From positions 96,001 through 160,000 of the IMG/VR virus record IMGVR_UViG_3300014205_005221: DNA of 64,000 nt; one strand, given 5' to 3'. Positions 26,426-62,525 of this stretch are shown here, in pieces. The stretch is from a virus. Lineage: Duplodnaviria; Caudoviricetes. The notes under the pieces are model-generated. The model made no database searches, was not told the origin of the DNA, and saw only the letters and a program-made list of their open reading frames with translations. Numbering within the stretch: position 1 is the first letter of the stretch; each line of letters opens with the position of its first letter. The position numbers and the translations under genes are program-made.

Positions 26426-26438
26426 GTAAGTGTCTTCG
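26423..26438 (-). promoter_or_regulatory. Putative leaderless late promoter CGAAGAC-N6-ATG
   Basis: GGTCGAAGACACTTACATG directly after a terminator. Confidence 0.55.
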
Positions 26439-28196: not shown

Positions 28197-28405
28197 GGCT
28201 TGGTGCGCTCCTTCCATGCCTTCTTGAACAGATCCCAGTTCACCCGCTGCCGATCGATCCATGGCGCCGCGTCCCAGGCGTCCACGATCTGCTCGTACAA
28301 CTCTTCACACGAGTTCAGATCTTCAGCTCGCTCTGCGGCGTCGTACTTCTCATTCAACTCCAGCCACTCCTGCAGAGACGGCGGGACTGCCAAATCAGCG
28401 CTCAT
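28193..28405 (-). CDS. Hypothetical protein
   Basis: 70 aa; starts at an 18-bp motif. Confidence 0.65.
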   Translation of the reverse strand: MSADLAVPPSLQEWLELNEKYDAAERAEDLNSCEELYEQIVDAWDAAPWIDRQRVNWDLFKKAWKERTKP

Positions 28406-28420
28406 GCAGGTGTTCTACCC
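28403..28420 (-). repeat. Start-associated 18-bp motif GGGTAGAACACCTGCATG
   Basis: TAG is the upstream stop; ATG is the downstream start. Confidence 0.75.
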
Positions 28421-28621
28421 GCTAGTGAGCTGCCAGAGCCCCCACAAAGACAGGCCAAAGGCCACCACCGTGATCACCGGCAGCAAAACCCACGCCCACT
28501 GCCCCGCCTCATCCGAGATGCAGAACAGAATCACCCACAACATCCACACGAGGAACGCCGCAGCGACCGCACCAAAAAAGACTCCGAGCAACTCCAAAAA
28601 CGGAGGAAGCGTGATCGTCAC
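28415..28621 (-). CDS. Small membrane protein
   Basis: 68 aa, two TM segments. Confidence 0.65.
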   Translation of the reverse strand: MTITLPPFLELLGVFFGAVAAAFLVWMLWVILFCISDEAGQWAWVLLPVITVVAFGLSLWGLWQLTSG

Positions 28622-29280
28622 GTCCGGATCACCACGGTATTGCGCACCTCAACACTGTTAGTGCGGCCACGTTGCGCGCGAGAATCCGCCTTGACCGACG
28701 ACGACTGTGTCTGAGTCTCCGAAGGGAAACGACCGGACAGCAGATCCATCATTTTCTCGACATTGTTCTCAACAATGTGAGTGTAATCCACACCATCCAA
28801 AACCAGCAGAATGGCAAGCTTGCCGTCACGAAGTGCGTAGATCAGCTCTACAGAGTCGGTGAACAGACTCAGAGCCCAATAGCCGCGCTCGTGACCCACT
28901 TCAAGAGACTCGCCAAACCCGGCCGACAGATGCTCATACGCCTTCTGAATGAGCTTGGGGGCATCTTCGATATTTGCGCCAGTCGGAAAGTCGCGAGGAA
29001 GACTTTGACGGTAAGTAGGGTCGCGCCACAACTTACCGAAATCGTCATCCAGCCACACAGTAGGACGCTGCTTACCATCAACAGACAGCTTCACGTTCTT
29101 GAGGAACGTGCGTCCGCTCGGACTGACCTTGAAAAACGCCTCGTTGCGGACCCGGCCGTTATTGGCGATCAGCGTCCAGCCGCGCGTCACCTTAATGACC
29201 TCGGGGACCTCCCCCGTCTGTGCAACAACACGTTCGATGTATTCCTGCACAGACGGGGGATAGATCGAAACATCAGCCAC
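28618..29280 (-). CDS. Hypothetical protein
   Basis: 220 aa, coupled. Confidence 0.7.
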   Translation of the reverse strand: MADVSIYPPSVQEYIERVVAQTGEVPEVIKVTRGWTLIANNGRVRNEAFFKVSPSGRTFLKNVKLSVDGKQRPTVWLDDDFGKLWRDPTYRQSLPRDFPTGANIEDAPKLIQKAYEHLSAGFGESLEVGHERGYWALSLFTDSVELIYALRDGKLAILLVLDGVDYTHIVENNVEKMMDLLSGRFPSETQTQSSSVKADSRAQRGRTNSVEVRNTVVIRT

Positions 29281-30093
29281 TCAGCACCAGCCCCAGTACT
29301 TCTTCAGCGTGTCGATGACCCACGCATCGATCTTCTGGTAGTCCGGCTTCTCCGGGAGCGGACCGGCACCGGACTTCATCAGATCAAAGATCTCCGCTTC
29401 CAGCGCTTCCGCGCGACCCAGAGCTTCCTGCTTGGTGTACTTACCCACACGAAGGTCCCGGATCCAGGTGAGATCCGGTTCCGGGATCGGAAGCGTGATC
29501 GAACCGGTCTTGAGCAGCTCCACGCCCTGCACGCCGAGACGCACCATGTGCCCCGCGAACTTCGTATCGAAACCGTACTGCTCCCTGATATCCGCACGGC
29601 CCTGGTTGCGAGTACCGCCCGAGCGCAGGCCCAGCAGACCCTCACGCTGCGAACGCAGATATCCCGCGTACTTGAACCCGTTGCTCCGCGAAAGAAAAAG
29701 ATGCCGGTTCTCTCGCAGCGAGCGGCCCCACTGATTTGCAAACAGCACATGCTCCTGGGGGACAAACAGCGGAAGCTGCATTGTCGGATTCCCCTGTGCC
29801 ACCAGATCGACATAATGCCGAAGATTGTAAGCAACAAAGTCCAGGTCACCCGGACCGGAGCACACACCCTCGGGCTTGGTGCGCCAGGTGTACGTCTTGG
29901 TGTTCACCGACCCCAGAACCTGACGAGGGTGCTCCAGCCACACACCCATCTCATCGCGGTCGTCGGTTCCCTCGATCGACGTGCCATGCACACCCGAGCC
30001 CGCCAGCACGCGCAGGATCATGCCCTCGCGTGCGACCTTCTGGCGCGGGCTGTCCGGAAGGATCGGAATAACTTCGTTGAATTTAGCGCTCAC
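29281..30093 (-). CDS. Predicted nucleotidyltransferase (Pol-beta superfamily, YcgL/RlaP-like)
   Basis: GSGVHGTS...DDRDEMGV, GNPT, GFDTKFAGHMVRL, LPEKPD motifs. Confidence 0.85.
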   Translation of the reverse strand: MSAKFNEVIPILPDSPRQKVAREGMILRVLAGSGVHGTSIEGTDDRDEMGVWLEHPRQVLGSVNTKTYTWRTKPEGVCSGPGDLDFVAYNLRHYVDLVAQGNPTMQLPLFVPQEHVLFANQWGRSLRENRHLFLSRSNGFKYAGYLRSQREGLLGLRSGGTRNQGRADIREQYGFDTKFAGHMVRLGVQGVELLKTGSITLPIPEPDLTWIRDLRVGKYTKQEALGRAEALEAEIFDLMKSGAGPLPEKPDYQKIDAWVIDTLKKYWGWC

Positions 30094-30106
30094 GTAAATC
30101 TTCTAC

Positions 30107-30571
30107 TCATTCCTTAGGAGGATCGCAGAACTCCGGAGGCGGGTCCGTCACCCACGCCGGAGTGATATCCCGGTCCTCGAACTGAGGATTGCGCGTCCAC
30201 ACGCCGCCGGGCTTACGCTCCCACGCCTGCTCGATGTAGCACCCGACCGACGACATCGACTCGCCCGCACCACGACACTCATGCCACGGCGGATCACCGT
30301 AGCGGAAGTTCTCCGTCAGGTAATCGAGGTTCCACTCCGGCGGAAGCTCATCGCCTTCACGGAAGCTCCGGTACCGGTCATAGCGTGTCCAGCCCTCACC
30401 GACCGACATGCGCAGAGCACACGCCTGACACTCGATGCGAGCCAGCACGGCCCACGTGTCGTAGACGCCCAGCATCCGAGGATGGAAAGCCGCGTAACGC
30501 GGAACCCCGTAGCCATCGTGCCACAACGGGGTTCCGGCAATCTCGCGAATATCCTGATAGTCAGGAAGCAT
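30107..30571 (-). CDS. Hypothetical protein
   Basis: 154 aa; CQAC, YGDPPWHEC; starts at motif. Confidence 0.7.
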   Translation of the reverse strand: MLPDYQDIREIAGTPLWHDGYGVPRYAAFHPRMLGVYDTWAVLARIECQACALRMSVGEGWTRYDRYRSFREGDELPPEWNLDYLTENFRYGDPPWHECRGAGESMSSVGCYIEQAWERKPGGVWTRNPQFEDRDITPAWVTDPPPEFCDPPKE

Positions 30572-30586
30572 GTCAGAGTCCTACCC
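30569..30586 (-). repeat. Start-associated 18-bp motif GGGTAGGACTCTGACATG
   Basis: Gene junction; TAG is the upstream stop. Confidence 0.85.
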
Positions 30587-31021
30587 CGGGAGAAGACGCC
30601 TTGAGAACAAGTCCTTCAGCTCAAGGCGCGCCTGCGCTTTCCACTGCTCCTCGGTGCACGGGGAATACTCACCCCACACCTTCTGACCGAGCAGCCGACA
30701 ATCGTAGTCCGCCTCGGTGGGATCGTTGTCGATCGAATAGCCCTCCCGCTCCTGATAGCTCGGAGCGGGATCCCGGAACGGGCAGTCAGGACAGAACGAA
30801 CCCGGACCGTAGTCCGGGGACATCGTCGAACCGTTGAGCAGCCACTGCAAAGCCGGATAGAAATGCTCGTCAGCAGAGTCCGCCATCTCAGCGAGAGTAT
30901 CGCCGTAGAGAGACAGCGTGCACTCAGAGCACGACAGTCCCCAAAACACCTGACCGGTGTAACGGCGGTAGGAACGCAGCTTCGAGCGGTGCACCAACGG
31001 CATCGCCCCGCGCTCAGACAT
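30581..31021 (-). CDS. Hypothetical Cys-rich protein
   Basis: 146 aa; CSEC, CPDC. Confidence 0.6.
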   Translation of the reverse strand: MSERGAMPLVHRSKLRSYRRYTGQVFWGLSCSECTLSLYGDTLAEMADSADEHFYPALQWLLNGSTMSPDYGPGSFCPDCPFRDPAPSYQEREGYSIDNDPTEADYDCRLLGQKVWGEYSPCTEEQWKAQARLELKDLFSRRLLPG

Positions 31022-31214
31022 CAGAAAGTCCCGGAACCTTTACGCCCCAGCACCTAGCTACCTTGCGAAGCACCGTCGTCGCATAAATGACGGACTCCTG
31101 CGTGTTGTACCCCGCCTGCGAGTAAATACGAATCAGATGATGAACTGCCTCGTGGAGAGCGTCTTCATCCACCGAAACCGGCAGACACACCATGACATCC
31201 TCGACGTTCTCCAC
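31014..31214 (-). CDS. Hypothetical protein
   Basis: GTG 31214 with GGAGG RBS. Confidence 0.5.
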   Translation of the reverse strand: MENVEDVMVCLPVSVDEDALHEAVHHLIRIYSQAGYNTQESVIYATTVLRKVARCWGVKVPGLSDV

Positions 31215-31216
31215 GA

Positions 31217-31420
31217 CTACACCTCCGGAGGGAACGCCACGTCCCAACACGACGGGCAGATACCTGACATCAGCTGCTCACGACGGTCCACACTCAGATC
31301 ACTCAGAGCTTCCTGAATATGTGCACCGTGCTTCCACCGGTTGTACCCGATCTGATCGACCTCGAACTCGTCGACCTTGTGACACGTCGGGCACTCGGAA
31401 CTTACCAACAATACGGACAT
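31217..31420 (-). CDS. Small Zn-ribbon protein
   Basis: CPTC...IQEAL..LS.D.REQLMSGICPSCWD. Confidence 0.7.
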   Translation of the reverse strand: MSVLLVSSECPTCHKVDEFEVDQIGYNRWKHGAHIQEALSDLSVDRREQLMSGICPSCWDVAFPPEV

Positions 31421-31421
31421 G

Positions 31422-31751
31422 TCACTTACCCACCGGACGCTTGCCTCCGCAAAACTGATCCCACTCGGTCATCCGCAGCAGCGGCGTCGCGCCACCACCG
31501 CTGTCGCTACGGCCCGACGACGGCGTGGCGAAACCCAGGCCATCGACACACACCTTGGCGATGTTCGGGTACAGGTCTGCGTTGCGATACACCTCGATGT
31601 AGTCCACGTCGCTAACCACATCGACCGGAGAGCCCTCGTGGCCGCCCCGGTCACCGAGCTGCTCCGCACACCCGGTCAGCAGCGCGAGCGACAGCCCAGC
31701 GCCGACCAGAACACCCACAACACGCTTAGTCCTCACGGGGATCCCTTTCAC
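31422..31751 (-). CDS. Putative lipoprotein
   Basis: Basic N-terminus, hydrophobic core, LTGC lipobox. Confidence 0.7.
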   Translation of the reverse strand: MKGIPVRTKRVVGVLVGAGLSLALLTGCAEQLGDRGGHEGSPVDVVSDVDYIEVYRNADLYPNIAKVCVDGLGFATPSSGRSDSGGGATPLLRMTEWDQFCGGKRPVGK

Positions 31752-31760
31752 AACGAAGTT

Positions 31761-31916
31761 CTACCGGGGACGACGCTTCTTGCGGTCGACCACAACAGGC
31801 TTAGCAATGCTCAAAATATGCTCAGAAAACTCGCACCCGGGACGGGCGCAGTACCGCATGCTGCGCTGGGTCAGAAACTTGCCGTGACCACACTCAGGGC
31901 ATTTCCATGCGCTCAC
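31761..31916 (-). CDS. Small Zn-finger protein (51 aa)
   Basis: GTG 31916 with GAGGAG RBS; CPEC...CARPGC. Confidence 0.6.
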   Translation of the reverse strand: MSAWKCPECGHGKFLTQRSMRYCARPGCEFSEHILSIAKPVVVDRKKRRPR

Positions 31917-31926
31917 GGCACACTCC

Positions 31927-32430
31927 TCAGCGGTCGCCTTCGAGCAGCCGCTCGAACGCCTCGACGTTGCCCTTCGCATCGTTGACCGGGTTATGGTCAT
32001 GCGGGGTCCGACGGTACTTCTTCCATCCCTGCGTGTTCGGGAAGTTGTCCTTGAGCCCGGCGTAGTAGTCCGAGATCCGACGGCCCGAGTGCCCGAACGG
32101 GTTGTCCCGATCAGCACGGTCGAACATGCCCGCGATCCACATGAAGTCGTAGGCAGGGTTGTCCGACACCAGCACCGCACGCGAACCCTCGGGAAGCACG
32201 TTCAGCAGCCACAAGCCGAGATCGATCGACACCTCCTCGTCGGAGGCGACGCGCTCACCCACCACGGGAATCGCCGGATTCTCCGGATCCGGGTACGACT
32301 CGAACAGCCGACCGTGGAAAGTCTCTCGCGAGGTGAAGTGCACACACCCGAACTCGGTCAGCGTGCCGTTCACCGGAGACCGGCCCCGCGCTTCGCAGTC
32401 TACGAAAATCAGCTTGTCCAGGTATGCCAT
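31927..32430 (-). CDS. DEDD 3'-5' exonuclease (RNase AS/Rv2179c-like)
   Basis: FVDCE, DNPAYDF, NPFGHS, HNPVNDA (DEDDh) motifs. Confidence 0.8.
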   Translation of the reverse strand: MAYLDKLIFVDCEARGRSPVNGTLTEFGCVHFTSRETFHGRLFESYPDPENPAIPVVGERVASDEEVSIDLGLWLLNVLPEGSRAVLVSDNPAYDFMWIAGMFDRADRDNPFGHSGRRISDYYAGLKDNFPNTQGWKKYRRTPHDHNPVNDAKGNVEAFERLLEGDR

Positions 32431-32445
32431 GTCAGTGTTCTACCC
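32428..32445 (-). repeat. Start-associated 18-bp motif GGGTAGAACACTGACATG
   Basis: Intergenic, ends in the start ATG. Confidence 0.85.
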
Positions 32446-32446
32446 G

Positions 32447-32719
32447 TCAGAAAAGAACTTTGATGATCCGGGCCAGACACACACCCGGAGGCGGCGAGGG
32501 GTTCAGCACGACCACGCGGGCCTCAGACGGGTTGTGCCGGAACGAATTCGCGGGCACCAGCACCCAATTGCCCACTCGCGTCGACGTGGGCGCCAGGTAG
32601 GTGTAAACCCGGCCCAGCGGGTCGAACTGCACACCGACGGTGAAGTCTTCCTCCGCCGACGCCATGAACGACACGATCTCCGTATCAGAGATCGTCAGCT
32701 CTTCAACGTTGGTAACCAT
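32447..32719 (-). CDS. Hypothetical protein
   Basis: 90 aa; VGVQF...YTY...VGNWVLVP. Confidence 0.65.
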   Translation of the reverse strand: MVTNVEELTISDTEIVSFMASAEEDFTVGVQFDPLGRVYTYLAPTSTRVGNWVLVPANSFRHNPSEARVVVLNPSPPPGVCLARIIKVLF

Positions 32720-32734
32720 GTAGGTGTCCTACCC
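32717..32734 (-). repeat. Start-associated 18-bp motif GGGTAGGACACCTACATG
   Basis: Intergenic, ends in the start ATG. Confidence 0.8.
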
Positions 32735-32736
32735 GG

Positions 32737-32970
32737 TCAGTACGCAGTGCCCTGGATGTCCAGCCGATGGTCCTCCAGCAGCCGCACACGCTCGCGGAAC
32801 GAATCGATCGCCGCCTCCACGGTCAGCTCCACCTCGTCAGCGACCAGGGCGTCCGCAATCTCCTGCAGCTCCCAGCACTCGACGATGATGTCCCACCCAT
32901 CCTCGTGGTAGCGATGCTCGGCGTAGGCGTAGACAAACTTCGCCAGCTCCATGGGGGTGTGCTCAGCCAC
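32737..32970 (-). CDS. Hypothetical protein
   Basis: 77 aa; YHEDGWDIIVECW; GAGGA RBS. Confidence 0.7.
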   Translation of the reverse strand: MAEHTPMELAKFVYAYAEHRYHEDGWDIIVECWELQEIADALVADEVELTVEAAIDSFRERVRLLEDHRLDIQGTAY

Positions 32971-33217
32971 GATTCCTCTTCACCCTGTGCGAATCCAACA
33001 TTTCGCGGTGCTGCTCAGTCCACCAAGCGCGGAACTCACGTGACACCCGCAGAGTCTCGCCGGTAAAGGCGAAATACCTAGCCTGCTCCCACGTCGGAAA
33101 AGCCCAGCCCCGAGACGAACCAACCGGCCGCACGTGCCAAGGCCACGCAGCCGCCTCCGGAGTGCCGTAACCCTTCTGACCCGGGCGAATCTTGAAAACC
33201 TCACACCGCCTAGTCAC
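32963..33217 (-). CDS. Hypothetical protein
   Basis: 84 aa, overlapping coupling at both ends. Confidence 0.55.
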   Translation of the reverse strand: MTRRCEVFKIRPGQKGYGTPEAAAWPWHVRPVGSSRGWAFPTWEQARYFAFTGETLRVSREFRAWWTEQHREMLDSHRVKRNRG

Positions 33218-33446
33218 GACGATCCACCTTGTACGTGAAACGCTGCGTCGTACGGAAATACGCCACAGCCTTCATCATCTCCAGCGCCTGATCCAGATCA
33301 ACGTGAGCACCCTCCCAGAACGGAGTGCCCATCTGCTCCAGGAGCATCTCGTCCTCCCCCTCGGGCAGCGGCCACACCCGGAACCGGCCCTCGCGGTCCA
33401 CGAGCATCATTGCCGCCGCAGGAACAGGAAACGACTGCTCCGCCAT
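33210..33446 (-). CDS. Hypothetical protein (MAEQSFPV...)
   Basis: ATG 33446 coupled to a TGA in another frame. Confidence 0.55.
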   Translation of the reverse strand: MAEQSFPVPAAAMMLVDREGRFRVWPLPEGEDEMLLEQMGTPFWEGAHVDLDQALEMMKAVAYFRTTQRFTYKVDRRD

Positions 33447-33686
33447 CACGCACTCTCCCGAGAGGTGCGCACCAGATCCCGCGTCGCCAACTTGCCCACG
33501 CCCAGCGCCAGCAACAGCCCACCCAGAAACACCGAAACCACCCAGAACGTCAGCCCGAAGTCCAGCAACGCCCCCGATGAGCGCCACCGCGAACAGCCCC
33601 ACCCGGATCACCAGACGCAGCACCAGCGTGACCAGCTCATCGAGCGAACGCAGCAGCGCCTCTTCGCCACTCACCTCAGGCATCAT
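33446..33686 (-). pseudogene. Membrane protein apparently frameshifted at a G5 run (or sequence error)
   Basis: Removing one G at 33571-33575 gives ...LIGALLDFGLTFWVVSVFLGGLLLALGVGK...RESA* ending in TGATG coupling. Confidence 0.45.
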
Positions 33687-33889
33687 GCACTCCCGAACTG
33701 GAACGAAATGAAGCACTCGTCCTCACCGGGAATGAATCCCAGCTCATCGAGCCGAGCCAACTCCTCAGAAGAGAACAGGCCCGGATCCACGCACACGGTC
33801 AGCACGTCATGCTCGCAATGCGTAGGCGACGAAGGGTTAGCGCGCGTACGCATCAGCAGCAGGATCCCAAGAAGCGCAAGATCGATCAT
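33683..33889 (-). CDS. Hypothetical protein
   Basis: PTHCEHDVL...ELARLDELGF...FGSA. Confidence 0.65.
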   Translation of the reverse strand: MIDLALLGILLLMRTRANPSSPTHCEHDVLTVCVDPGLFSSEELARLDELGFIPGEDECFISFQFGSA

Positions 33890-33895
33890 CCATCA

Positions 33896-34111
33896 CTACA
33901 CCCCAAAGATCATGGTCGTCGCCGGAACACCGGTCAGACCCGTCACGACCAGCGCAACCGCGACCGAGCCGATCAACAGCAGCCCGACCGCAGGAAGACA
34001 CCCGATCTCGCCACCGGAGTCGCGGCGGGCCAGCAGGAAAATCACCGCCACTTCGGCCAGCGCGAGCACTACACCGCAGATCAGCGCGGTCAACTGGATA
34101 GCAGGACTCAT
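33896..34111 (-). CDS. Small two-TM membrane protein
   Basis: 71 aa; starts at motif. Confidence 0.65.
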   Translation of the reverse strand: MSPAIQLTALICGVVLALAEVAVIFLLARRDSGGEIGCLPAVGLLLIGSVAVALVVTGLTGVPATTMIFGV

Positions 34112-34126
34112 GTAGCACTCCTACCC
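34109..34126 (-). repeat. Start-associated 18-bp motif GGGTAGGAGTGCTACATG
   Basis: TAG is the stop of the 52-aa upstream ORF. Confidence 0.7.
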
Positions 34127-34279
34127 GAGCAACTTGATCAGTCCCTGCTCAATCAACTCATCGAGCAGTGCATCCGCAGACTGCAGGCGCAGATCCGCAG
34201 TCAGGTAATCCGGCGGGAAGTAGCTCTCGATCAACGCCACCGCGCATTCACGAACCGTAAAACCCGAGTAATCAGACAT
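34121..34279 (-). CDS. 52-aa hypothetical protein (MSDYSGFTVRECAVALIESYF...KLLG)
   Basis: Not in ORF track; runs exactly from the ATG of one motif to the TAG of the next. Confidence 0.65.
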   Translation of the reverse strand: MSDYSGFTVRECAVALIESYFPPDYLTADLRLQSADALLDELIEQGLIKLLG

Positions 34280-34460
34280 GTCGGTGTCCTACCCGGTAAA
34301 GGTCGGGAACGGCCTGATGGAACCCGCGCCACTTCCGGCACCGCGCCGGGAGATGCTCCACCCAGATACCCGGACCAAAAAACTCCCAAAGAACTCCATC
34401 CAGCACGAACACCAGACGGGTGCAGTTCTCGCACGGATCGCAATCATCGAAGTTGCTCAC
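34272..34460 (-). CDS. Hypothetical Cys-containing protein
   Basis: 62 aa; GTGA coupling. Confidence 0.5.
   Translation of the reverse strand: MSNFDDCDPCENCTRLVFVLDGVLWEFFGPGIWVEHLPARCRKWRGFHQAVPDLYRVGHRHV
34277..34294 (-). repeat. Start-associated 18-bp motif GGGTAGGACACCGACATG
   Basis: Ends in the ATG of the 52-aa ORF. Confidence 0.8.
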
Positions 34461-34657
34461 TTGCCGAACACCTTTCGATACAACCGCGCCGCCATGTCAG
34501 AGACATTGACGTAAATCAACGCCTGGGCGTAGTCGGTATTCTGCGACGCCGGGCGGGTGAGCAGATCCTCCGGGATGGGCTGATCCGACAGCTCCTGCGC
34601 GTACACCTCGTGGATGTCAGACTCATCGACCAGCTGCAGCAGCCACTTGTATCCCAT
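34457..34657 (-). CDS. Hypothetical protein
   Basis: 66 aa; starts at motif. Confidence 0.65.
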   Translation of the reverse strand: MGYKWLLQLVDESDIHEVYAQELSDQPIPEDLLTRPASQNTDYAQALIYVNVSDMAARLYRKVFGK

Positions 34658-34672
34658 GTCAGGGTTCTACCC
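34655..34672 (-). repeat. Start-associated 18-bp motif GGGTAGAACCCTGACATG
   Basis: TAG is the upstream stop. Confidence 0.85.
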
Positions 34673-34849
34673 CTCCGACGCCTCTTCCCACTCTGCGTAG
34701 GAATCGAACAGCGACGGACCCTCACCCGGGAAATCCAGGCCGATGACCGGACCCTCCACCGAACCATCCGGGCGGATGATGCGCACAATCGTGTACCAGC
34801 GATGCACGTCGAACTCGACACGGTCAATCGGACCCTCAATAATCTTCAT
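34667..34849 (-). CDS. Hypothetical protein
   Basis: 60 aa, runs motif to motif. Confidence 0.65.
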   Translation of the reverse strand: MKIIEGPIDRVEFDVHRWYTIVRIIRPDGSVEGPVIGLDFPGEGPSLFDSYAEWEEASEG

Positions 34850-34864
34850 GTCAGAGTTCTACCC
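34847..34864 (-). repeat. Start-associated 18-bp motif GGGTAGAACTCTGACATG
   Basis: Upstream gene stops at the internal TGA. Confidence 0.85.
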
Positions 34865-35186
34865 TAGAGGTGTAGCGATACGCCTGACGCATACGAACTT
34901 CCACATTCAGTCGAATGTCAATACGCTGCTGCATAGACGGATAAGAATACTTACCGCTCATGCCTCTAAAAGTAGTCATCGCAACAGACTGCACCGGAGA
35001 GGGGCCCGGAGTAGCGGCCTCCAAATAATTTCCCTTGCGGCTCACGACAGCGTCGAGCTTCTTACTCCTAGTGACGGCCCAGTCCAAGGCGTCCGCAGCC
35101 TCATCAACGCTGACCTGCCACAACACCGCAGCCGCGACCAGTAGGTCACAGGTGCGGGCAACACGCTCATCTCCCCAACGAGTCAT
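34851..35186 (-). CDS. Hypothetical protein
   Basis: 111 aa, runs motif to motif. Confidence 0.6.
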   Translation of the reverse strand: MTRWGDERVARTCDLLVAAAVLWQVSVDEAADALDWAVTRSKKLDAVVSRKGNYLEAATPGPSPVQSVAMTTFRGMSGKYSYPSMQQRIDIRLNVEVRMRQAYRYTSRVEL

Positions 35187-35201
35187 GTCAGGGTCCTACC
35201 C
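35184..35201 (-). repeat. Start-associated 18-bp motif GGGTAGGACCCTGACATG
   Basis: TAG is the stop of the EndoVII-like gene. Confidence 0.85.
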
Positions 35202-36029
35202 GTCCAGCGAGGACCGCGCGTGGCGGAGGATGTACTCGTCGAACGCCGCTCCGGAAATGTTCATAGTCTCCAACCGACCTAATGTGGTGTTACAGCTGAA
35301 ACACAGCAGCTGACGAAGACACAAACCGCAGGACTGCCGACCCGGACAACACGCGTGGTCGTGATCCACAGCCAACCGACGATCACCCGGCGAAGCCCCA
35401 CAAATGGCACAAACCCACCCCTGAGCATCCGCCATACGTTCATAATCTTCAACAGTAAGTTTATACAAAAACCAAATTCTACTTACCCAAACCTGATCTA
35501 AATAAAGCTCACGCTGATCGTCAGTCATAGAGTCATAACGAACTTTACGTTCAATTTTACGACAAACTCGGCATACGACCTGATATCCAGATTCGACCGT
35601 CTGGTCTTCATAAAAACTAAGCACAGGCTTGCTCTCACCACAGGTAAGACACACCCGGACGCCATCGACAACCGGGTTTTCCTGATCCTTGATCGAAGGA
35701 AGTACATAGTCCGGACCACGCCACTTCTCCGCCTGCTTGGCGTTGGCCTTGCGCTGCAGCGCGCGGGCACACGGGAGACAGCGTCCGGTAAGACGCCTAC
35801 CCTCACCGCGATTCTTCTTCACCAGCTGCGCCAGCTCCATCGGAAGCTTCTCCCGGCACTGCGTGCAGGTGAACTCCGGATCCTCAGGCGTGAGGCCACG
35901 GTTGGGCTGACGCTCAGACGGCGTCTGCTTCATGCCAGGGCGGGGGATACCCGGGCGCCCGGACCCGGGACGAGGAACTCCCTTCCCACCCTTAGACGGC
36001 GGACTGCCAACAAAAACTGCGTCTTCCAC
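35196..36029 (-). CDS. Endonuclease VII-family nuclease (likely homing endonuclease)
   Basis: YKLTVEDYERM..AQGWVCAIC...LAVDHDH...LLCFSCNTTLG; extra N-terminal CxxC Zn fingers. Confidence 0.85.
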   Translation of the reverse strand: MEDAVFVGSPPSKGGKGVPRPGSGRPGIPRPGMKQTPSERQPNRGLTPEDPEFTCTQCREKLPMELAQLVKKNRGEGRRLTGRCLPCARALQRKANAKQAEKWRGPDYVLPSIKDQENPVVDGVRVCLTCGESKPVLSFYEDQTVESGYQVVCRVCRKIERKVRYDSMTDDQRELYLDQVWVSRIWFLYKLTVEDYERMADAQGWVCAICGASPGDRRLAVDHDHACCPGRQSCGLCLRQLLCFSCNTTLGRLETMNISGAAFDEYILRHARSSLDG

Positions 36030-36046
36030 AAAACCTCCAGAAACGA

Positions 36047-36089
36047 CTGAGAGGGCAGAACCCCTTTCACAGGAGTCCTACCCTCTCAG
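36047..36089 (-). terminator. 19-bp hairpin (probable terminator) after major capsid gene
   Basis: CUGAGAGGGUAGGACUCCU-GUGAA-AGGGGUUCUGCCCUCUCAG pairs fully (3 G.U) only on minus-strand RNA; followed by UCGUUUCU. Confidence 0.75.
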
Positions 36090-36158: not shown

Positions 36159-37151
36159 TCAGTTGGCGACGCGGGCGACGAGCACCTGCTCGGGGCGATA
36201 GATCACCGGGAGGAAGTGTTGTTCGATGAGATACTGGCGACTGGAAGGGTCTTTCTCCTTCCAGGTCTTAGCAAATCGACCTGTAAAGCCACGAGGGGCC
36301 TCATCGTCGGCAGTCGGGCCAAGCATGAACTCCATGGGACGGTTGTCCGAGAGGTTGGCAAAAATAATCTTGCCGTCACCCAGGAACATCGTCTCATTAC
36401 CAGCCGCGTCCTCGTAGACCGACTCGGTGGTCGTCCAGTTGAGGCCCATGAAGCCCGGCATGGTGCCCGACGAGTAGTACTCGTCCTTCATGCGGTCCGA
36501 CATCAGGCCAGCGGCGTTACCGTCGGTGGCGAAGGCGTCGAAGATCAGCGACAGCGTCTGCTCGGTGCAGAACGCCTCGCGGACCGGGACCTGACCATCA
36601 CGCTGGATCAGGCGCTTCCACGCCCGGATGTCAGCGATGATCTGCGAAGCCGATGCGCTGGCCCAGAGGGTCGACGCGGTGGGCTTGTGCGAAGCCGAGA
36701 ACTTGTAGTCGATCGACGCCTGAACGTCGTCGTAGTCGAACACCAGCTGACCCTGGAGAGCCTGCCACGCGCAGTACTCCATGAAGTTGTCAAAGCGGGT
36801 GTTCAGGTCGTTGATCTCACGGAGAACAGCGGCCTCGGCGTTCTTGGCGGCAAGCGACCCTGGCTCACGGATCCAGTGGATCGTGGTCGGCTCGAATACC
36901 TTCTTCTCGCGAAGGTAGACGAACGCGGCGCTTTCCTGGCTCCGACCGAGCCGAGGCACGATGTGCGCCTCGGAGTTCGGAACGTTGGGCTTCGCCACGC
37001 TCCGGGAACCCTTGATCACGTCCCACTTCGCCACCGGGTAAGGCCACGGCTGCTTGGAGAGACGGTTGACCAGGATCAGGTTCTCCGGAGCCTTCATCTT
37101 CTCGACCACGCCCATAAGCACGGTCGGCTCCAGCAAACTGATGTCCGGCAA
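36159..37151 (-). CDS. Major capsid protein (lambda gpE-like)
   Basis: ~330 aa after protease/scaffold and decoration genes; probable TTG start at 37151 after GAAAGGTG (track starts at 37181); TWKEKDPS...LPVIYRPE C-terminus. Confidence 0.88.
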   Translation of the reverse strand: MPDISLLEPTVLMGVVEKMKAPENLILVNRLSKQPWPYPVAKWDVIKGSRSVAKPNVPNSEAHIVPRLGRSQESAAFVYLREKKVFEPTTIHWIREPGSLAAKNAEAAVLREINDLNTRFDNFMEYCAWQALQGQLVFDYDDVQASIDYKFSASHKPTASTLWASASASQIIADIRAWKRLIQRDGQVPVREAFCTEQTLSLIFDAFATDGNAAGLMSDRMKDEYYSSGTMPGFMGLNWTTTESVYEDAAGNETMFLGDGKIIFANLSDNRPMEFMLGPTADDEAPRGFTGRFAKTWKEKDPSSRQYLIEQHFLPVIYRPEQVLVARVAN

Positions 37152-37303
37152 CTCTGTCACCTTTCTCGCTGACGCAGTCACCGGAATTATGCTGGGACTG
37201 CTATGTACATCTGATTCGTCAGCGAGTCCGATATTTAAATCGAACCCCGGCCTGCGCCACGCTGGTTAAAGCGTCATCCGGCTGGCCTACGTGCTAATGC
37301 TTA

Positions 37304-52834: not shown

Positions 52835-52847
52835 ATCCCAGTCTTCG
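52832..52847 (-). promoter_or_regulatory. Putative leaderless late promoter CGAAGAC-N6-ATG
   Basis: CACGAAGACTGGGATATG at terminase start. Confidence 0.55.
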
Positions 52848-52858
52848 TGCAGTCCGTG

Positions 52859-53518
52859 CTAAGCGGTCATCGCGTAGTAGTCCAGAGGACCCGGAATCCA
52901 CAGCTCCGATGCCAGCCGGTACAACTCACGGCTGAACGAATCCGACGCAGCTCCGTACTTCTCGCAAAACACAAACCCCTCGGCCAACAGCTCCGGGATG
53001 CTCATCGAAGCACGCTGCGAGTACTTCCGAGCAGCCGCAGCGCCCGAGATCCCCGACGCCTTCTCCAAGCGTCGCAACACCGCCTGATACCCCGCCTCCA
53101 GCGAACTCGGGTACCGACGATGGATGGGCACCTGGAACAGCAGGTGCCCCCACTCGTGCGTAAGAATGTCTTCCCAACAATCTCCTACGAGAGCGTTGGT
53201 TTCACGCAGTCCTAGAAGCTCGACCTCAGACAACGGGTTCAGCAGTTTGCGCTTGTTGATCTGCAAAACTCCCTCAACGGTAGTCATGCAGAAGGTAGAA
53301 GCATGCGCGTAGTCGTCGCCTAGATCTTTAGCGTGAACCTTCTTAATGCCTGCGGCCAAGTACGGCCACGCTTCACTCAAGTCGTACAGGTGCTGACGAA
53401 GCTGAGGAAGACGCGAGTACTTCCGCAACTGCCAGCTAAACGGGATGAGCAACTCATGCCCGGGAGGACGCGCCGCGCTCGCAATCGGCTTCACCGACGG
53501 AAGCAACGACATAGACAT
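52859..53518 (-). CDS. HExxH zincin-like metalloprotein
   Basis: ILTHEWGHLL...YS.RA...ELLAEGF. Confidence 0.7.
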   Translation of the reverse strand: MSMSLLPSVKPIASAARPPGHELLIPFSWQLRKYSRLPQLRQHLYDLSEAWPYLAAGIKKVHAKDLGDDYAHASTFCMTTVEGVLQINKRKLLNPLSEVELLGLRETNALVGDCWEDILTHEWGHLLFQVPIHRRYPSSLEAGYQAVLRRLEKASGISGAAAARKYSQRASMSIPELLAEGFVFCEKYGAASDSFSRELYRLASELWIPGPLDYYAMTA

Positions 53519-53541
53519 GCGCCCGTTATACCGTACCTACC

Positions 53542-58822: not shown

Positions 58823-60991
58823 TCAGCTCTGAATCTGAGCGGCCAGCACGAACCATCCGGTACCCGATCGGTTCCGTAGTCCGAGGAACAGTCGCTTGTT
58901 GATGGGGACGGCAATCGGAGTAGCGATGCCAGACGTCAGCAGCAACGAACCATTCAAAGTCAACGTGAGCGCGGCGTTGGCGGTGATTTCGTAGTTAATC
59001 TGATCACCATCAATTCCCTGAGTGGGAACTGCCAATGTAGCAGTGGCACCAGTGGTAGTTACTCGATACACAGTGGCAATAGTGGAATCTACGTTAATAG
59101 TTCCACCGTTAGCAACGTTAGAAAGAGTGGTAATTACCGGCTCTACACGACCGCCAACAATATGCCAGTTTGCACCGTCTGAAATAACCTCACGGAACCC
59201 ACCAGACATTGAAATTACTTCAGTAAGCTGTCCGTCAATAGTTTCGGTGCCGTTAGGGTCGATAGTCAACGCATTCGCGACACTACCGGCCAACTTCTTG
59301 ATGATGAACCGACGACCCGTACGGCCAGCCGCCGTAGGAAGGGTCGCAGTCATTGCGGCAGATGCTGTGTTGAAAACAACTACGCCATCAGTATCTACAA
59401 GAGTATAGCTAGCAGTCTTAACCGAGTACGGGCCTAAAATCAGCTGATAGTTTGTGTGATCGTTAGCAGCTGGATTAACGTGATCATCAAAAGTGACTTT
59501 AGGCGTGTAATACGAAACCAACGAGTCCGGCTGACCCGGGGAATGCGAAAACGCGTGTGTCGTAGGAACACGTGCGTTGGTCATACGAGAGTCATCACCG
59601 GCAGCCACGGTGCTCGCCGCCGTGCCCACCGGAAGGTTTCCGTAGGGAACCTTGGACGACCCATCCAACGGCGCGTACCCCGACGCCGCACCACGAGCCG
59701 ACAAATCCTGCTTCAGGTTCAAAGCGGTCTGTTCCGCTGTAGAAATTGGCTTGTTAGCATCAGAAGTATTGTCGACGTTACCCAGTCCCACATCGCCCTT
59801 GGCAAGGGCAAGAGTGGCTTTCAGCTGCGCAGGAGTACGCGACGACCATGCACCCGCAACGGACTGAACAACATTATCTGTTGTGGCAGTAAGCGCTGCA
59901 ATCGCCGTAAGATCAGCATCAAGAGGCTGCTTACCATCCAAAGCAGTCTGCTGTGCAGACGATACCGGCTTATTGGCATCTGAGGTGTTGTCAACGTTTC
60001 CAAGACCAACATGAGTCTTGGTAATTCCCGTAGGCGTACCGGTAAACGCAGGTGACGCCAGCGGAGCCTTCAAGTCCAAAGCGCTCTGCGTAGCCGAAGA
60101 AACAGGCTTGGACGAATCCGAAGTGTTGTCGACGTTTCCAAGGCCGACGTCCGCCTTGACCAGACCAAGAGCAGTCTTGAACTGCGCGTAAGTCTTCTTA
60201 ATCCACCCGGCGCCGTCCGATGCAATTGCGCCAGCCGTAGACGCGTCGAGAGCAGCAATGGTTGTCAGATCAGAGTCTGACGCCTGCTTACCGTCCAGCG
60301 CGGTCTGCGTAGCAGAGCTGATCGGCTTATTTGCGTCAGACGTATTATCTACGTTACCCAGACCAACGTGTGTCTTGGTGATTCCCGTCGGAGTACCCGT
60401 GAATGCGGGAGAGGCAAGAGGCGCCTTCAAATCCAGCGCACTCTGCTGTGCGGACGACACCGGCTTCGAAGCGTCAGCCGTGTTGTCAACGTTTGCGAGT
60501 CCCACATCAGACTTGGACAACGCCAGCGACGTCTTCAGCTGAGCCGGAGTCCGAGACGCCCACGCAGAACCGACTGACTGAATTACGTTATCAGTAGTGG
60601 CTGTGAGTCCAGCAATAGTGGTCAAGTCAGAATCTAACGGCTGCTTGCCGTCTAAAGCGGTCTGCTGCGCAGAAGATACAGGCTTAGCAGAGTCCGCCGT
60701 ATTATCCACATTGCCAAGGCCAACATCGCTCTTGACCAAACCCAGCGTCGCTTTGAGCTGAGCAGGCGTACGTGACGCCCACGAAGAACCGACTGACTGC
60801 AGCACATTGTTCGTGGTCGCAGTCAGTCCGGCGATAGTCGTCAGGTCAGAATCGAGAGCCTGCTTACCGTCAAGAGCGGTCTGTGTAGCAGAAGATACGG
60901 GCTTGTTGGCGTCAGAAGTATTATCTACGTTCCCTAACCCAACATCAGACTTATTCGGCAGCTCGTACTGAGCCTTCTTCAGCTTAGTCAT
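58823..60991 (-). CDS. Fibre protein with seven VGL(G/A)NVDNT repeats
   Basis: 722 aa; 7x K.xVGL(G/A)NVDNT.D..KP.S.A.Q.AL; C-terminal TLPTAAG...TIDPNGTETIDG. Confidence 0.85.
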   Translation of the reverse strand: MTKLKKAQYELPNKSDVGLGNVDNTSDANKPVSSATQTALDGKQALDSDLTTIAGLTATTNNVLQSVGSSWASRTPAQLKATLGLVKSDVGLGNVDNTADSAKPVSSAQQTALDGKQPLDSDLTTIAGLTATTDNVIQSVGSAWASRTPAQLKTSLALSKSDVGLANVDNTADASKPVSSAQQSALDLKAPLASPAFTGTPTGITKTHVGLGNVDNTSDANKPISSATQTALDGKQASDSDLTTIAALDASTAGAIASDGAGWIKKTYAQFKTALGLVKADVGLGNVDNTSDSSKPVSSATQSALDLKAPLASPAFTGTPTGITKTHVGLGNVDNTSDANKPVSSAQQTALDGKQPLDADLTAIAALTATTDNVVQSVAGAWSSRTPAQLKATLALAKGDVGLGNVDNTSDANKPISTAEQTALNLKQDLSARGAASGYAPLDGSSKVPYGNLPVGTAASTVAAGDDSRMTNARVPTTHAFSHSPGQPDSLVSYYTPKVTFDDHVNPAANDHTNYQLILGPYSVKTASYTLVDTDGVVVFNTASAAMTATLPTAAGRTGRRFIIKKLAGSVANALTIDPNGTETIDGQLTEVISMSGGFREVISDGANWHIVGGRVEPVITTLSNVANGGTINVDSTIATVYRVTTTGATATLAVPTQGIDGDQINYEITANAALTLTLNGSLLLTSGIATPIAVPINKRLFLGLRNRSGTGWFVLAAQIQS

Positions 60992-61602: not shown

Positions 61603-62525
61603 TACGCTGTCTCCGTTCCGAGCACACCGCCCGACATGAACAAGCGGTAATTCACTCCGCTAACGCGGTCCTTGAGGACCACACCTTTAGTTGCGTCCGT
61701 TACAGCAATGTCCTCGCTAAAAGACCCGGCAAACACAGCAGCCTTGGAATAGACGATCACGACCTTGTCGCCCGACACGAACGCACCCTCAGCGGGAGTG
61801 ACCTCTACCGTGGTCGATGTAGGCAATGTGTATTCCGACGTTTGCAACTGCTGACCATTCAGAAATACAAGCTGAACGCCGTAATTTGTCTGCGCAAGAG
61901 TAAAAGTTTTTGGAGTACCCGCAGTTGGTGAAAACGTCTCTACAGCATACGGCTGAAACGTATTGACCGTGTATGCACCAGCAGTTGCTGAAATAACAAT
62001 TTTATCAGTAGCATCGTTAGGCGCAATAGTGACGTTGGCTCCCGCCTCCAACGCCGCTCCCAGCGCATCTCGGGCACGCTCATCCGCGTCCGAGATGTTC
62101 AGCTTCAAATCAAAAGCAGTCTGCTGCGCAGTGCTTACCGGCTTATTGGCATCAGAAGTATTATCAACATTGCCGAGACCAACATCGCCCTTGGCAAGCG
62201 CCAGCGTGGCCTTAAGTTGCGCTGGCGTTCGACTAGCCCACGCCGACCCCACCGATTGAATAACATTACTTGTTGTAGCAGTGAGGCCAGCAATGGTTGT
62301 TAAATCAGAATCAACAGGCTGAGCACCAATATCGGCAGGACTCAACGCATCAGGACCGCCAATGGCGTGCGTTGATTTGTGAGCTTTGGGATCACGCGTA
62401 TCCGAAAGACGGGGATCATTGCCCTCTGCTGCCGTCCCGGCGGTAGATCCAAACGTCACCGATGCATCTGAACCATCCTCACCCGGAGGACCCTTCAGAT
62501 TCCCGCGTGCAGTCCACGTAGCCAC
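61602..62525 (-). CDS. Fibre-like protein
   Basis: GNDPRLSD, HKSTHAIGGPD, one DVGLGNVDNT repeat. Confidence 0.75.
   Translation of the reverse strand: MATWTARGNLKGPPGEDGSDASVTFGSTAGTAAEGNDPRLSDTRDPKAHKSTHAIGGPDALSPADIGAQPVDSDLTTIAGLTATTSNVIQSVGSAWASRTPAQLKATLALAKGDVGLGNVDNTSDANKPVSTAQQTAFDLKLNISDADERARDALGAALEAGANVTIAPNDATDKIVISATAGAYTVNTFQPYAVETFSPTAGTPKTFTLAQTNYGVQLVFLNGQQLQTSEYTLPTSTTVEVTPAEGAFVSGDKVVIVYSKAAVFAGSFSEDIAVTDATKGVVLKDRVSGVNYRLFMSGGVLGTETA

Follow-up and report, generated by a model that had tools for sequence, protein, structure and literature searches.

An 18-bp stop/promoter/start junction, probably a phage-specific leaderless promoter, punctuates a fast-changing gene island in a large uncultured actinobacterial phage

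The 64,000-nucleotide (nt) stretch analysed here (the window) comprises positions 96,001 to 160,000 of IMG/VR virus record IMGVR_UViG_3300014205_005221, a 186,050-bp contig termed C1. Past its major capsid gene, on the minus strand, lies an array of small genes whose junctions are formed by a recurrent 18-bp element ending in a start codon. We propose, with a probability of about 0.68, that this element is a phage-specific, −35-independent promoter placed directly against the start codon, from which leaderless mRNAs would be made. What is particular to this DNA is the anatomy, 18-bp stop/promoter/start junctions in a gene island of fast turnover, and this anatomy is confirmed. C1 is far larger than any other contig of its bin (2.9 Mb, 398 contigs), and the minus strand carries ~94% of its predicted genes. 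This strand bias, a content that includes the major capsid gene (Phage_cap_E), a portal gene and 40 tRNA genes, and the identity of its nearest cultured relative, Microbacterium phage Magritte (portal identity 47%), establish C1 as a large uncultured phage of an actinobacterium. No tyrosine integrase was found on C1, where serine integrases and repressors were not searched for, and a nucleotide search of the array DNA against GenBank phages gave no match.

The initial annotation had described the motif within the array; a scan of the whole genome showed that it is not confined there. We defined the class II core as (G/C)GGTA(G/T)(A/G)A(C/G) and took the gene strand as the strand of most C1 genes. 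Gene-strand copies of the core number 93, against 5 on the opposite strand and ~14 expected from base composition. An ATG or GTG follows exactly 6 nt downstream at 53 gene-strand sites and at no site on the other strand. The remaining 2.7 Mb of the bin contain 6 such motif-plus-start matches and no ATG peak 15 nt past GGGTA that would point to use of the motif by the host. Consistent with these counts, an unbiased 6-mer scan upstream of open reading frame (ORF) starts placed GGGTAG at spacer 9 at the top of the enrichment (33 versus 1.6 expected), above all words resembling the Shine-Dalgarno (SD) sequence. Gene junctions or intergenic DNA hold 88 of the 93 core sites, and ~80 motif copies lie outside any array. 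Nine copies stand 5–94 nt upstream of tRNA genes, in three tRNA clusters, and some lie 22–40 nt upstream of long genes that have a strong SD of their own (C1 93484, 73853 and 46177; window 36083). The copy at C1 93484 heads an operon encoding an SNF2 helicase, a class II ribonucleotide reductase and a sigma factor-like protein, while large structural genes mostly lack the GGGTA class. One site outside the array has a recognizable counterpart in a related genome, G001:

53516..53533, minus strand: class II site CGGTATAACgggcgcATG, preceding a 219-residue gene; the orthologous site in G001 reads GGGTAGTACagcagcATG

The position of the core relative to the start codon is that of a −10 element in a leaderless promoter. 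The placement of TAGRAC 6 nt before the ATG, noticed earlier in the array, recurs for the core, at exactly 6 nt, at 53 C1 sites and equals that of canonical promoters: TA falls at −12/−11 counted from the A of the start codon, 6 (±1) nt separate the hexamer from the start, and the T expected at −7 is absent. Pyrimidine at −1 and purine at +1 are the usual preferences at transcription starts; 51 of the 53 sites have a pyrimidine at −1, and A or G stands at +1. C1 also carries an internal standard of comparison, namely 37 host-type promoters of the form TTGnnn-N17-TAnnnT followed after 6 or 7 nt by ATGACSA, mostly at the ends of the contig. In these, the −10 hexamer (often TAGTCT) has the TAG of TAGRAC and an equal spacing to the ATG. 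What sets the two classes apart is the second half of the hexamer, the trinucleotide preceding it and the −35. A T at the last hexamer position is found only in the host-type promoters, where TGG precedes the hexamer.

That no consistent −35 accompanies the motif was borne out by an information scan of the 93 sites, in which every upstream column gave at most ~0.3 bit. T-rich upstream stretches had been considered as a −35 by eye; they do not keep a fixed position in this column scan and were rejected. The suggested likeness to SigB/SigF promoters (GTTT-N15-17-GGGTA) survives in part: GGGTA is invariant, and in place of a GTTT-like −35 at fixed spacing there is a weak T five bases before GGG. 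The bases that an SD sequence would need are variable (A occupies position R at 44 of the 93 sites, and another relative, G003, often has T in that place), and the invariant GGGTA..A has no complement at the 3′ end of 16S rRNA.

A third word, CGAAGAC, stands 6 nt before the ATG of SD-less starts at window positions 52841, 38962 and 26432 (all minus strand), a geometry equal to that of the other two promoter classes. It precedes a 631-residue gene just upstream of the portal gene (52841), a 399-residue gene (38962) and a 60-residue gene past the array (26432), and may represent a late promoter class. The downstream boundary of the array is marked by the copy at 26432, which is preceded by a T-rich sequence resembling a terminator. 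CGAAGAC is also carried by the start of a 242-residue protein at C1 94952–95680 (L034:10952–11680), which has no NCBIfam or Pfam match.

Within the array, all nine 18-mers reported earlier were recovered, all on the minus strand, as were two degenerate copies. The array features are as follows.

36159..37181, minus strand: major capsid protein (Phage_cap_E), the conserved upstream flank of the variable array
35196..36029, minus strand: endonuclease VII-type nuclease (Endo VII) of 277 residues, first gene of the array
35201-35184, minus strand: junction motif GGGTAGGACCCTGACATG; TAG ends the Endo VII gene, ATG opens a 111-residue gene
34864-34847, minus strand: junction motif GGGTAGAACTCTGACATG; an internal TGA is the upstream stop, ATG opens a 60-residue gene
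34672-34655, minus strand: junction motif GGGTAGAACCCTGACATG; TAG is the upstream stop, ATG opens a 66-residue gene
34294-34277, minus strand: junction motif GGGTAGGACACCGACATG; a 62-residue upstream ORF (34460-34272) passes through in the third frame, ATG opens a 52-residue gene
34126-34109, minus strand: junction motif GGGTAGGAGTGCTACATG; TAG is the upstream stop, ATG opens a 71-residue membrane-like gene
32734-32717, minus strand: junction motif GGGTAGGACACCTACATG; the upstream TGA lies 2 nt earlier, ATG opens a 90-residue gene
32445-32428, minus strand: junction motif GGGTAGAACACTGACATG; the upstream TGA lies 1 nt earlier, ATG opens a 167-residue gene
31766-31749, minus strand: variant motif CGGTAGAACTTCGTTGTG; TAG is the upstream stop, GTG opens a 109-residue lipoprotein-like gene
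31435-31418, minus strand: degenerate junction CGGTGGGTAAGTGACATG; TGACATG only, without the −10 core
30586-30569, minus strand: junction motif GGGTAGGACTCTGACATG; TAG is the upstream stop, ATG opens a 154-residue gene (phrog_27600)
29281..30093, minus strand: RlaP/Pol-beta-type nucleotidyltransferase of 270 residues within the array; its start lacks the motif
28420-28403, minus strand: junction motif GGGTAGAACACCTGCATG; TAG is the upstream stop, ATG opens a 70-residue gene

Shuffled sequence gave a chance expectation of none for the nine 18-mers: a pattern search allowing up to two mismatches returned 7 matches in the real DNA and 0 in 100 shuffles. As had been claimed, every copy ends in an ATG, and each ATG opens an ORF with good codon statistics; long plus-strand ORFs over the region score as shadows by the same measure. 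Exactly five copies supply the upstream TAG stop in frame (35184, 34655, 34109, 30569 and 28403). At the other four junctions, one stop is the TGA of CTGAC (34851), one ORF reads through (34460–34272) and two stops lie 1–2 nt before the motif. Both degenerate copies are real: at 31749 the TAG serves as a stop, and 31418 retains TGACATG only, so that it probably couples stop and start without providing a promoter. A further good core at 36083–36075, the tenth in the region, had been overlooked. Read in the three frames, the motif holds TAG in the frame of the ATG and TGA in the second frame where the spacer is CTGAC, and at 28 of the 53 junctions on the contig the motif TAG terminates an ORF of 40 or more codons (chance, one third). 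Since TAG and ATG share a frame, read-through by a suppressor tRNA was considered and rejected, as none of the 40 tRNAs predicted by aragorn reads TAG. Not every array gene starts at the motif: at 32737–33889 about five small genes are linked by overlapping stop and start codons (ATGA/GTGA), and the array is therefore a mixture of promoter junctions and coupled junctions. The product of the 167-residue gene has a weak match to Rv2179c-like exoribonucleases.

C1 encodes a candidate reader of the motif. A single sigma-like ORF (88154–88957, 267 residues; TIGR02937 at a relaxed threshold) lies ~7 kb before the window. Its best NCBIfam matches are FliA_WhiG (TIGR02479; 5.9e-17, 62 bits against a cut-off of 189.6) and SigBFG (1.5e-7), and its best solved relative is E. 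coli FliA in a holoenzyme structure (6pmi_F, E 2e-8). The stop codon of the sigma gene in C1 is the TAG of a class II motif, and the orthologues in G001 and G003 likewise end in glycine-stop. Presence of the motif in relatives varies along with sigma similarity to C1:

G001: sigma 70% identical; motif plus start 20 times on the gene strand, 0 on the other
G003: sigma 52% identical; motif plus start 46 versus 2, mostly with 5-nt spacing
G002: sigma 46% identical; motif plus start 21 versus 0
G004: sigma 30% identical; no motif enrichment
Magritte: sigma 30% identical; no motif enrichment

The first 80 kb of Magritte show no enriched motif at fixed spacing, and its 30% homologue is annotated as 'DNA binding protein'. 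Between C1 and G001, orthologous sites persist with changes at their variable bases (window 53533 matches G001 64555, and C1 168555 matches G001 84931). These co-occurrences are suggestive, and the divergent FliA/WhiG-like sigma of the phage probably reads the motif. The class II site heading the sigma operon suggests positive feedback. In G003 (IMGVR_UViG_3300049434_000014) the spacer to the start codon is 5 nt in 35 cases and 6 nt in 11, while nearly all C1 and G001 copies have 6 nt; the preferred distance to the start seems to have moved together with the sigma orthologue. A 58-bp repeat with 84% identity between copies (C1 3490–3546 and 88103–88159) starts, in both copies, exactly at a class II motif, one of them at the sigma gene stop codon, and may be a small RNA made from a class II promoter.

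Based on these findings, we propose that the conserved part, GGG-TA(G/T)(A/G)A(C/G), acts as a '−10 only' promoter. With TA at −12/−11 from the start-codon A, transcription would begin at the start codon itself and the mRNA would be leaderless. Leaderless translation is frequent in Actinobacteria, and actinobacterial ribosomes would translate these mRNAs without an SD. Because the motif holds a TAG in the ATG frame (in the array often a TGA in the second frame), the stop codon of the upstream gene can lie within the following promoter; the result would be 18-bp stop/promoter/start junctions with zero intergenic DNA. The reader would be the phage sigma on host core polymerase. The array is a fast-changing island of mostly orphan small genes, between the putative capsid terminator and the next structural operon, in which each gene block would receive this promoter. 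The initial annotation had offered leaderless early promoters as one of its readings. The leaderless-promoter part is favoured by the genome-wide, strand-specific spread of the motif, its geometry, the copies before tRNA genes and SD-led genes, the −1 pyrimidine, the co-occurring sigma gene and the lack of a common −35; 'early' is probably wrong, as a separate, host-type class serves small genes at the contig ends. Since GGGTA sites stand before the sigma operon, tRNAs and genes of DNA metabolism, and the class would need a non-host factor, it is probably a middle class, a second wave following the host-type −35/−10 early promoters.

Several points weigh against a promoter of this kind. Sigma-70-type −10 elements have a conserved T at the end of the hexamer, and in the listed GGG/CGG-type copies with a start this position is C or G. 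The motif, GGGTA(G/T)RA(C/G) with no −35, fits neither the sigma-28 promoter consensus (TAAA-N15-GCCGATAA) nor a full SigB/F promoter, as GTTT is absent. The NCBIfam scores of the sigma ORF are far under the curated cut-offs, Pfam models of sigma regions 2 and 4 match neither this ORF nor anything else on C1, and co-occurrence in a handful of related genomes is the sole basis on which sigma and motif would be paired. The phage is uncultured, and its transcription starts are predicted from sequence. Eleven promoters in 8 kb without intervening terminators would give nested transcripts, so that the motif would also be present as RNA; with AGGA 7 nt from the ATG in half the copies and TAG 9 nt upstream of it, an additional role in SD-led initiation or in termination-reinitiation may exist.

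These last features would be the whole function if the motif were an RNA signal for translation, a ribosome-binding or reinitiation element from which the small genes are translated on long polycistronic mRNAs, a reading we consider unlikely. Its model is the start-associated sequence (SAS) found in mycobacteriophages of Cluster K and Microbacterium phages of Cluster EF (PMC3203893, PMC7302621), an element that has awaited a functional explanation since 2011. The SAS (GGGATAGGAGCCC, PMC3203893; EF consensus GGGAAAGGACCCC, PMC7302621) contains TAG, can hold the upstream stop and has one orientation (PMC3203893). Of known elements it is the nearest in appearance: both are asymmetric, GGG...TAGGA-like, a few bases before the ATG of non-structural genes, lineage-specific and absent from the host, and the AGGA(C/G) found 6–7 nt from the ATG in half of the copies, together with the TAG layout of the 28 junctions, would permit SD pairing or termination-reinitiation. 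However, the SAS keeps the SD core AGGAG, varies its spacing between 3 and 7 nt (PMC3203893) and is reported at start codons only, whereas here the SD-core positions vary, the invariant bases lack a complement in 16S rRNA, the spacing is fixed to 1 nt, and copies front nine tRNA genes and SD-led leaders. The tRNA copies also argue against an RNA cleavage site at which a host or phage endoribonuclease would cut just before start codons to leave leaderless mRNAs after transcription. Strand specificity, the fixed distance to the start and the lack of terminators between array genes would suit such cleavage, but copies from a few to 94 nt upstream of tRNAs would gain nothing from it, and the match to canonical −10 geometry and the co-occurring sigma would be coincidences; we regard it as very unlikely. 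An operator for a phage DNA-binding protein, which would block or tune transcription through the junctions, seems to us highly improbable. Asymmetric, oriented, many-copy sites are known from the L5 stoperators of Cluster A mycobacteriophages, and the motif shows the same pattern, with dozens of copies in one orientation at gene junctions. Stoperators have been contrasted with the SAS (PMC3203893). Yet an operator does not need an exact 6-nt distance to the start codon, a search of C1 for tyrosine integrases, though not for serine integrases or repressors, gave no pointer to lysogeny, and both the −10-like TA and spacing and the sites in front of tRNA clusters speak against it.

Comparison with relatives shows how quickly the array changes. 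C1 and G001 are collinear with ~70% nucleotide identity on both sides, and no DNA aligns from the capsid gene to window 26238. Protein homologues of array genes in G001 are limited to Endo VII and two small genes, the latter in swapped order; G001 nonetheless has 9–11 motif-started small genes at the same place. L038, a 5-kb contig with a capsid 89% identical, has the same post-capsid layout with different genes, one of its junctions reading GGGTAGAACTCTGATATG. None of 71 further loci with more distant capsid relatives has an array, and the motif occurs there no more than once near the capsid gene; G003 has four consecutive motif-started small genes elsewhere, at 75.6–77.2 kb. The 6-nt spacers of ten array junctions are more alike than those of other copies (55% versus 32% pairwise identity; permutation p ~1e-4), while the 20-nt flanks are no more alike than those of other copies. 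Self-BLAST found no repeat longer than 18 bp at the array junctions, and the exact 18-mer has four single matches in IMG/VR, without arrays. The 90- and 154-residue genes have no IMG/VR homologues. The 167-residue gene is widespread, with 96 relatives, and none of its 30 closest homologues in other phages starts at the motif; thus the lineage would add its own signal to acquired genes, the motif not travelling with the gene. The gene at 33217 is translationally coupled in C1 and its G001 homologue is motif-started, so individual genes can gain or lose the motif. Breakpoints could not be aligned with L038 or G001, as array DNA is not alignable and the best relatives have capsid identities of 87–89%. 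In many distant relatives (L041–L045, L053, L059 and L086) the gene immediately following the capsid gene is likewise of endonuclease VII type; post-capsid Endo VII may be a stand-alone nuclease that triggers turnover of genes nearby.

The cassette shuffling put forward earlier is partly supported by this comparison, being consistent with gene turnover under a kept architecture, swapped gene order and uniform spacers. It could be taken in two forms. In the stronger, the 18-mer would be mainly a recombination junction, a crossover point for insertion, deletion and reordering of genes with expression secondary. The unrelated genes of G001 and L038 between conserved flanks with the motif punctuation retained, the swapped gene pair, the array-specific spacer similarity, the near-identical L038 junction and the nuclease gene at the array head all speak for it. 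On the other side stand a homology of only 18 bp, relatives too distant for breakpoint mapping, isolated 18-mers elsewhere in IMG/VR, the motif-free homologues of the 167-residue gene and the abundance of copies outside arrays, and we hold this form to be improbable. The milder form, in which one 18-bp junction is stop, complete promoter, start and crossover site at once and captures and reshuffles orphan genes, is in our judgement doubtful; if it were true, recombination of an ORF into the interval between two copies would bring it under the phage sigma and lead to its immediate expression. The counterpart of either form, and the nearest known case in genome dynamics, would be the promoter early stem-loop (PeSL) cassettes of T4-type phages, each of which has a host sigma-70 early promoter and a stem-loop, and for which recombination and mini-circles were demonstrated experimentally (PMC2839356, PMC4122927). 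As with PeSLs, repeated promoter motifs punctuate hyperplastic regions of small orphan genes, and the first array junction combines a putative promoter with a terminator-like hairpin; unlike in PeSLs, this is the only junction so equipped, and recombination is a hypothesis.

That hairpin lies just past the capsid gene, where the core missed at first is found:

36047..36089, minus strand: hairpin with a 19-bp stem, whose 5′ arm is the class II core GGGTAGGAC (36083-36075)

With a folding free energy of −38.4 kcal/mol (z −5.65), it looks like a terminator of the capsid transcript that overlaps the first array promoter. From the core at 36083, the predicted +1 is near 36068, followed by a leader of 39 nt, the SD GGAGG at 36038–36034 and the GTG start of the Endo VII gene at 36029. 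C1, G001 and L038 all have a strong post-capsid hairpin (−34 to −39 kcal/mol, z ~−5) whose 5′ arm includes GGGTAG. In C1 and G001 the arm is the class II core itself; the L038 arm has the variant GGGTAGGCC, and a proper motif lies ~100 nt downstream. Capsid transcripts would fold the hairpin and stop, and transcripts from the embedded promoter, lacking the 5′ arm, would continue. Between the array genes no terminators above chance were found, leaving this hairpin at the first junction (36089–36047) as the only one.

Among the nearest functional parallels are T4 and SPO1, in which promoter classes served by phage sigma factors are well established; for actinobacterial phages such classes have hardly been described. 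T4 late promoters (TATAAATA) are read by the phage sigma gp55, and SPO1 has phage sigma cascades. The class II motif resembles these in being a short −10-centred element without a −35, present in dozens of copies in one orientation; the proposed use of host core polymerase with a divergent phage sigma, by a later class that follows host-type early promoters, would extend the likeness. Here, in contrast, the element is GGGTA(G/T)RA(C/G), the candidate sigma appears to be of a FliA/WhiG-like (group 3) type with a region-4-like C-terminus, and the promoter abuts the start codon, with leaderless transcripts predicted, and contains the stop codon of the upstream gene. For Thermus phage P23-45, Berdygulova et al. 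reportedly found in 2011 that many middle and late transcripts are leaderless. The middle/late promoters of P23-45, likewise among the nearest in function, belong to a −35-independent, extended −10 class (PMC7403470). Both phages thus would use −35-independent promoters after host-type early ones, but in P23-45 the promoters carry a TGn-type extension and are served by host sigma A together with two small inhibitors, gp39 and gp76. The C1 motif lacks T as its last −10 base and is probably read by a phage sigma.

If the promoter assignment is correct, a whole predicted regulon becomes readable from sequence, with ~90 one-piece promoters, most of them fused to a start codon and many holding the previous stop, an extreme compaction that would depend on leaderless translation. 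One sigma gene and a 9-bp element would form a testable pair and a possible orthogonal expression switch in Actinobacteria. The SAS of Clusters K and EF could then be promoters of the same kind and not translation signals, and the array would illustrate one way for a phage to maintain expression of orphan genes in a rapidly changing island within its structural operons.

Elsewhere in the window, direct repeats of ~290–660 bp with 67–74% identity occur at 59707–60952 (C1 155707–156952) within a 722-residue gene (58823–60991). A further related copy lies at 62102–62321, and the 722-residue structural protein appears to be assembled from repeated modules.

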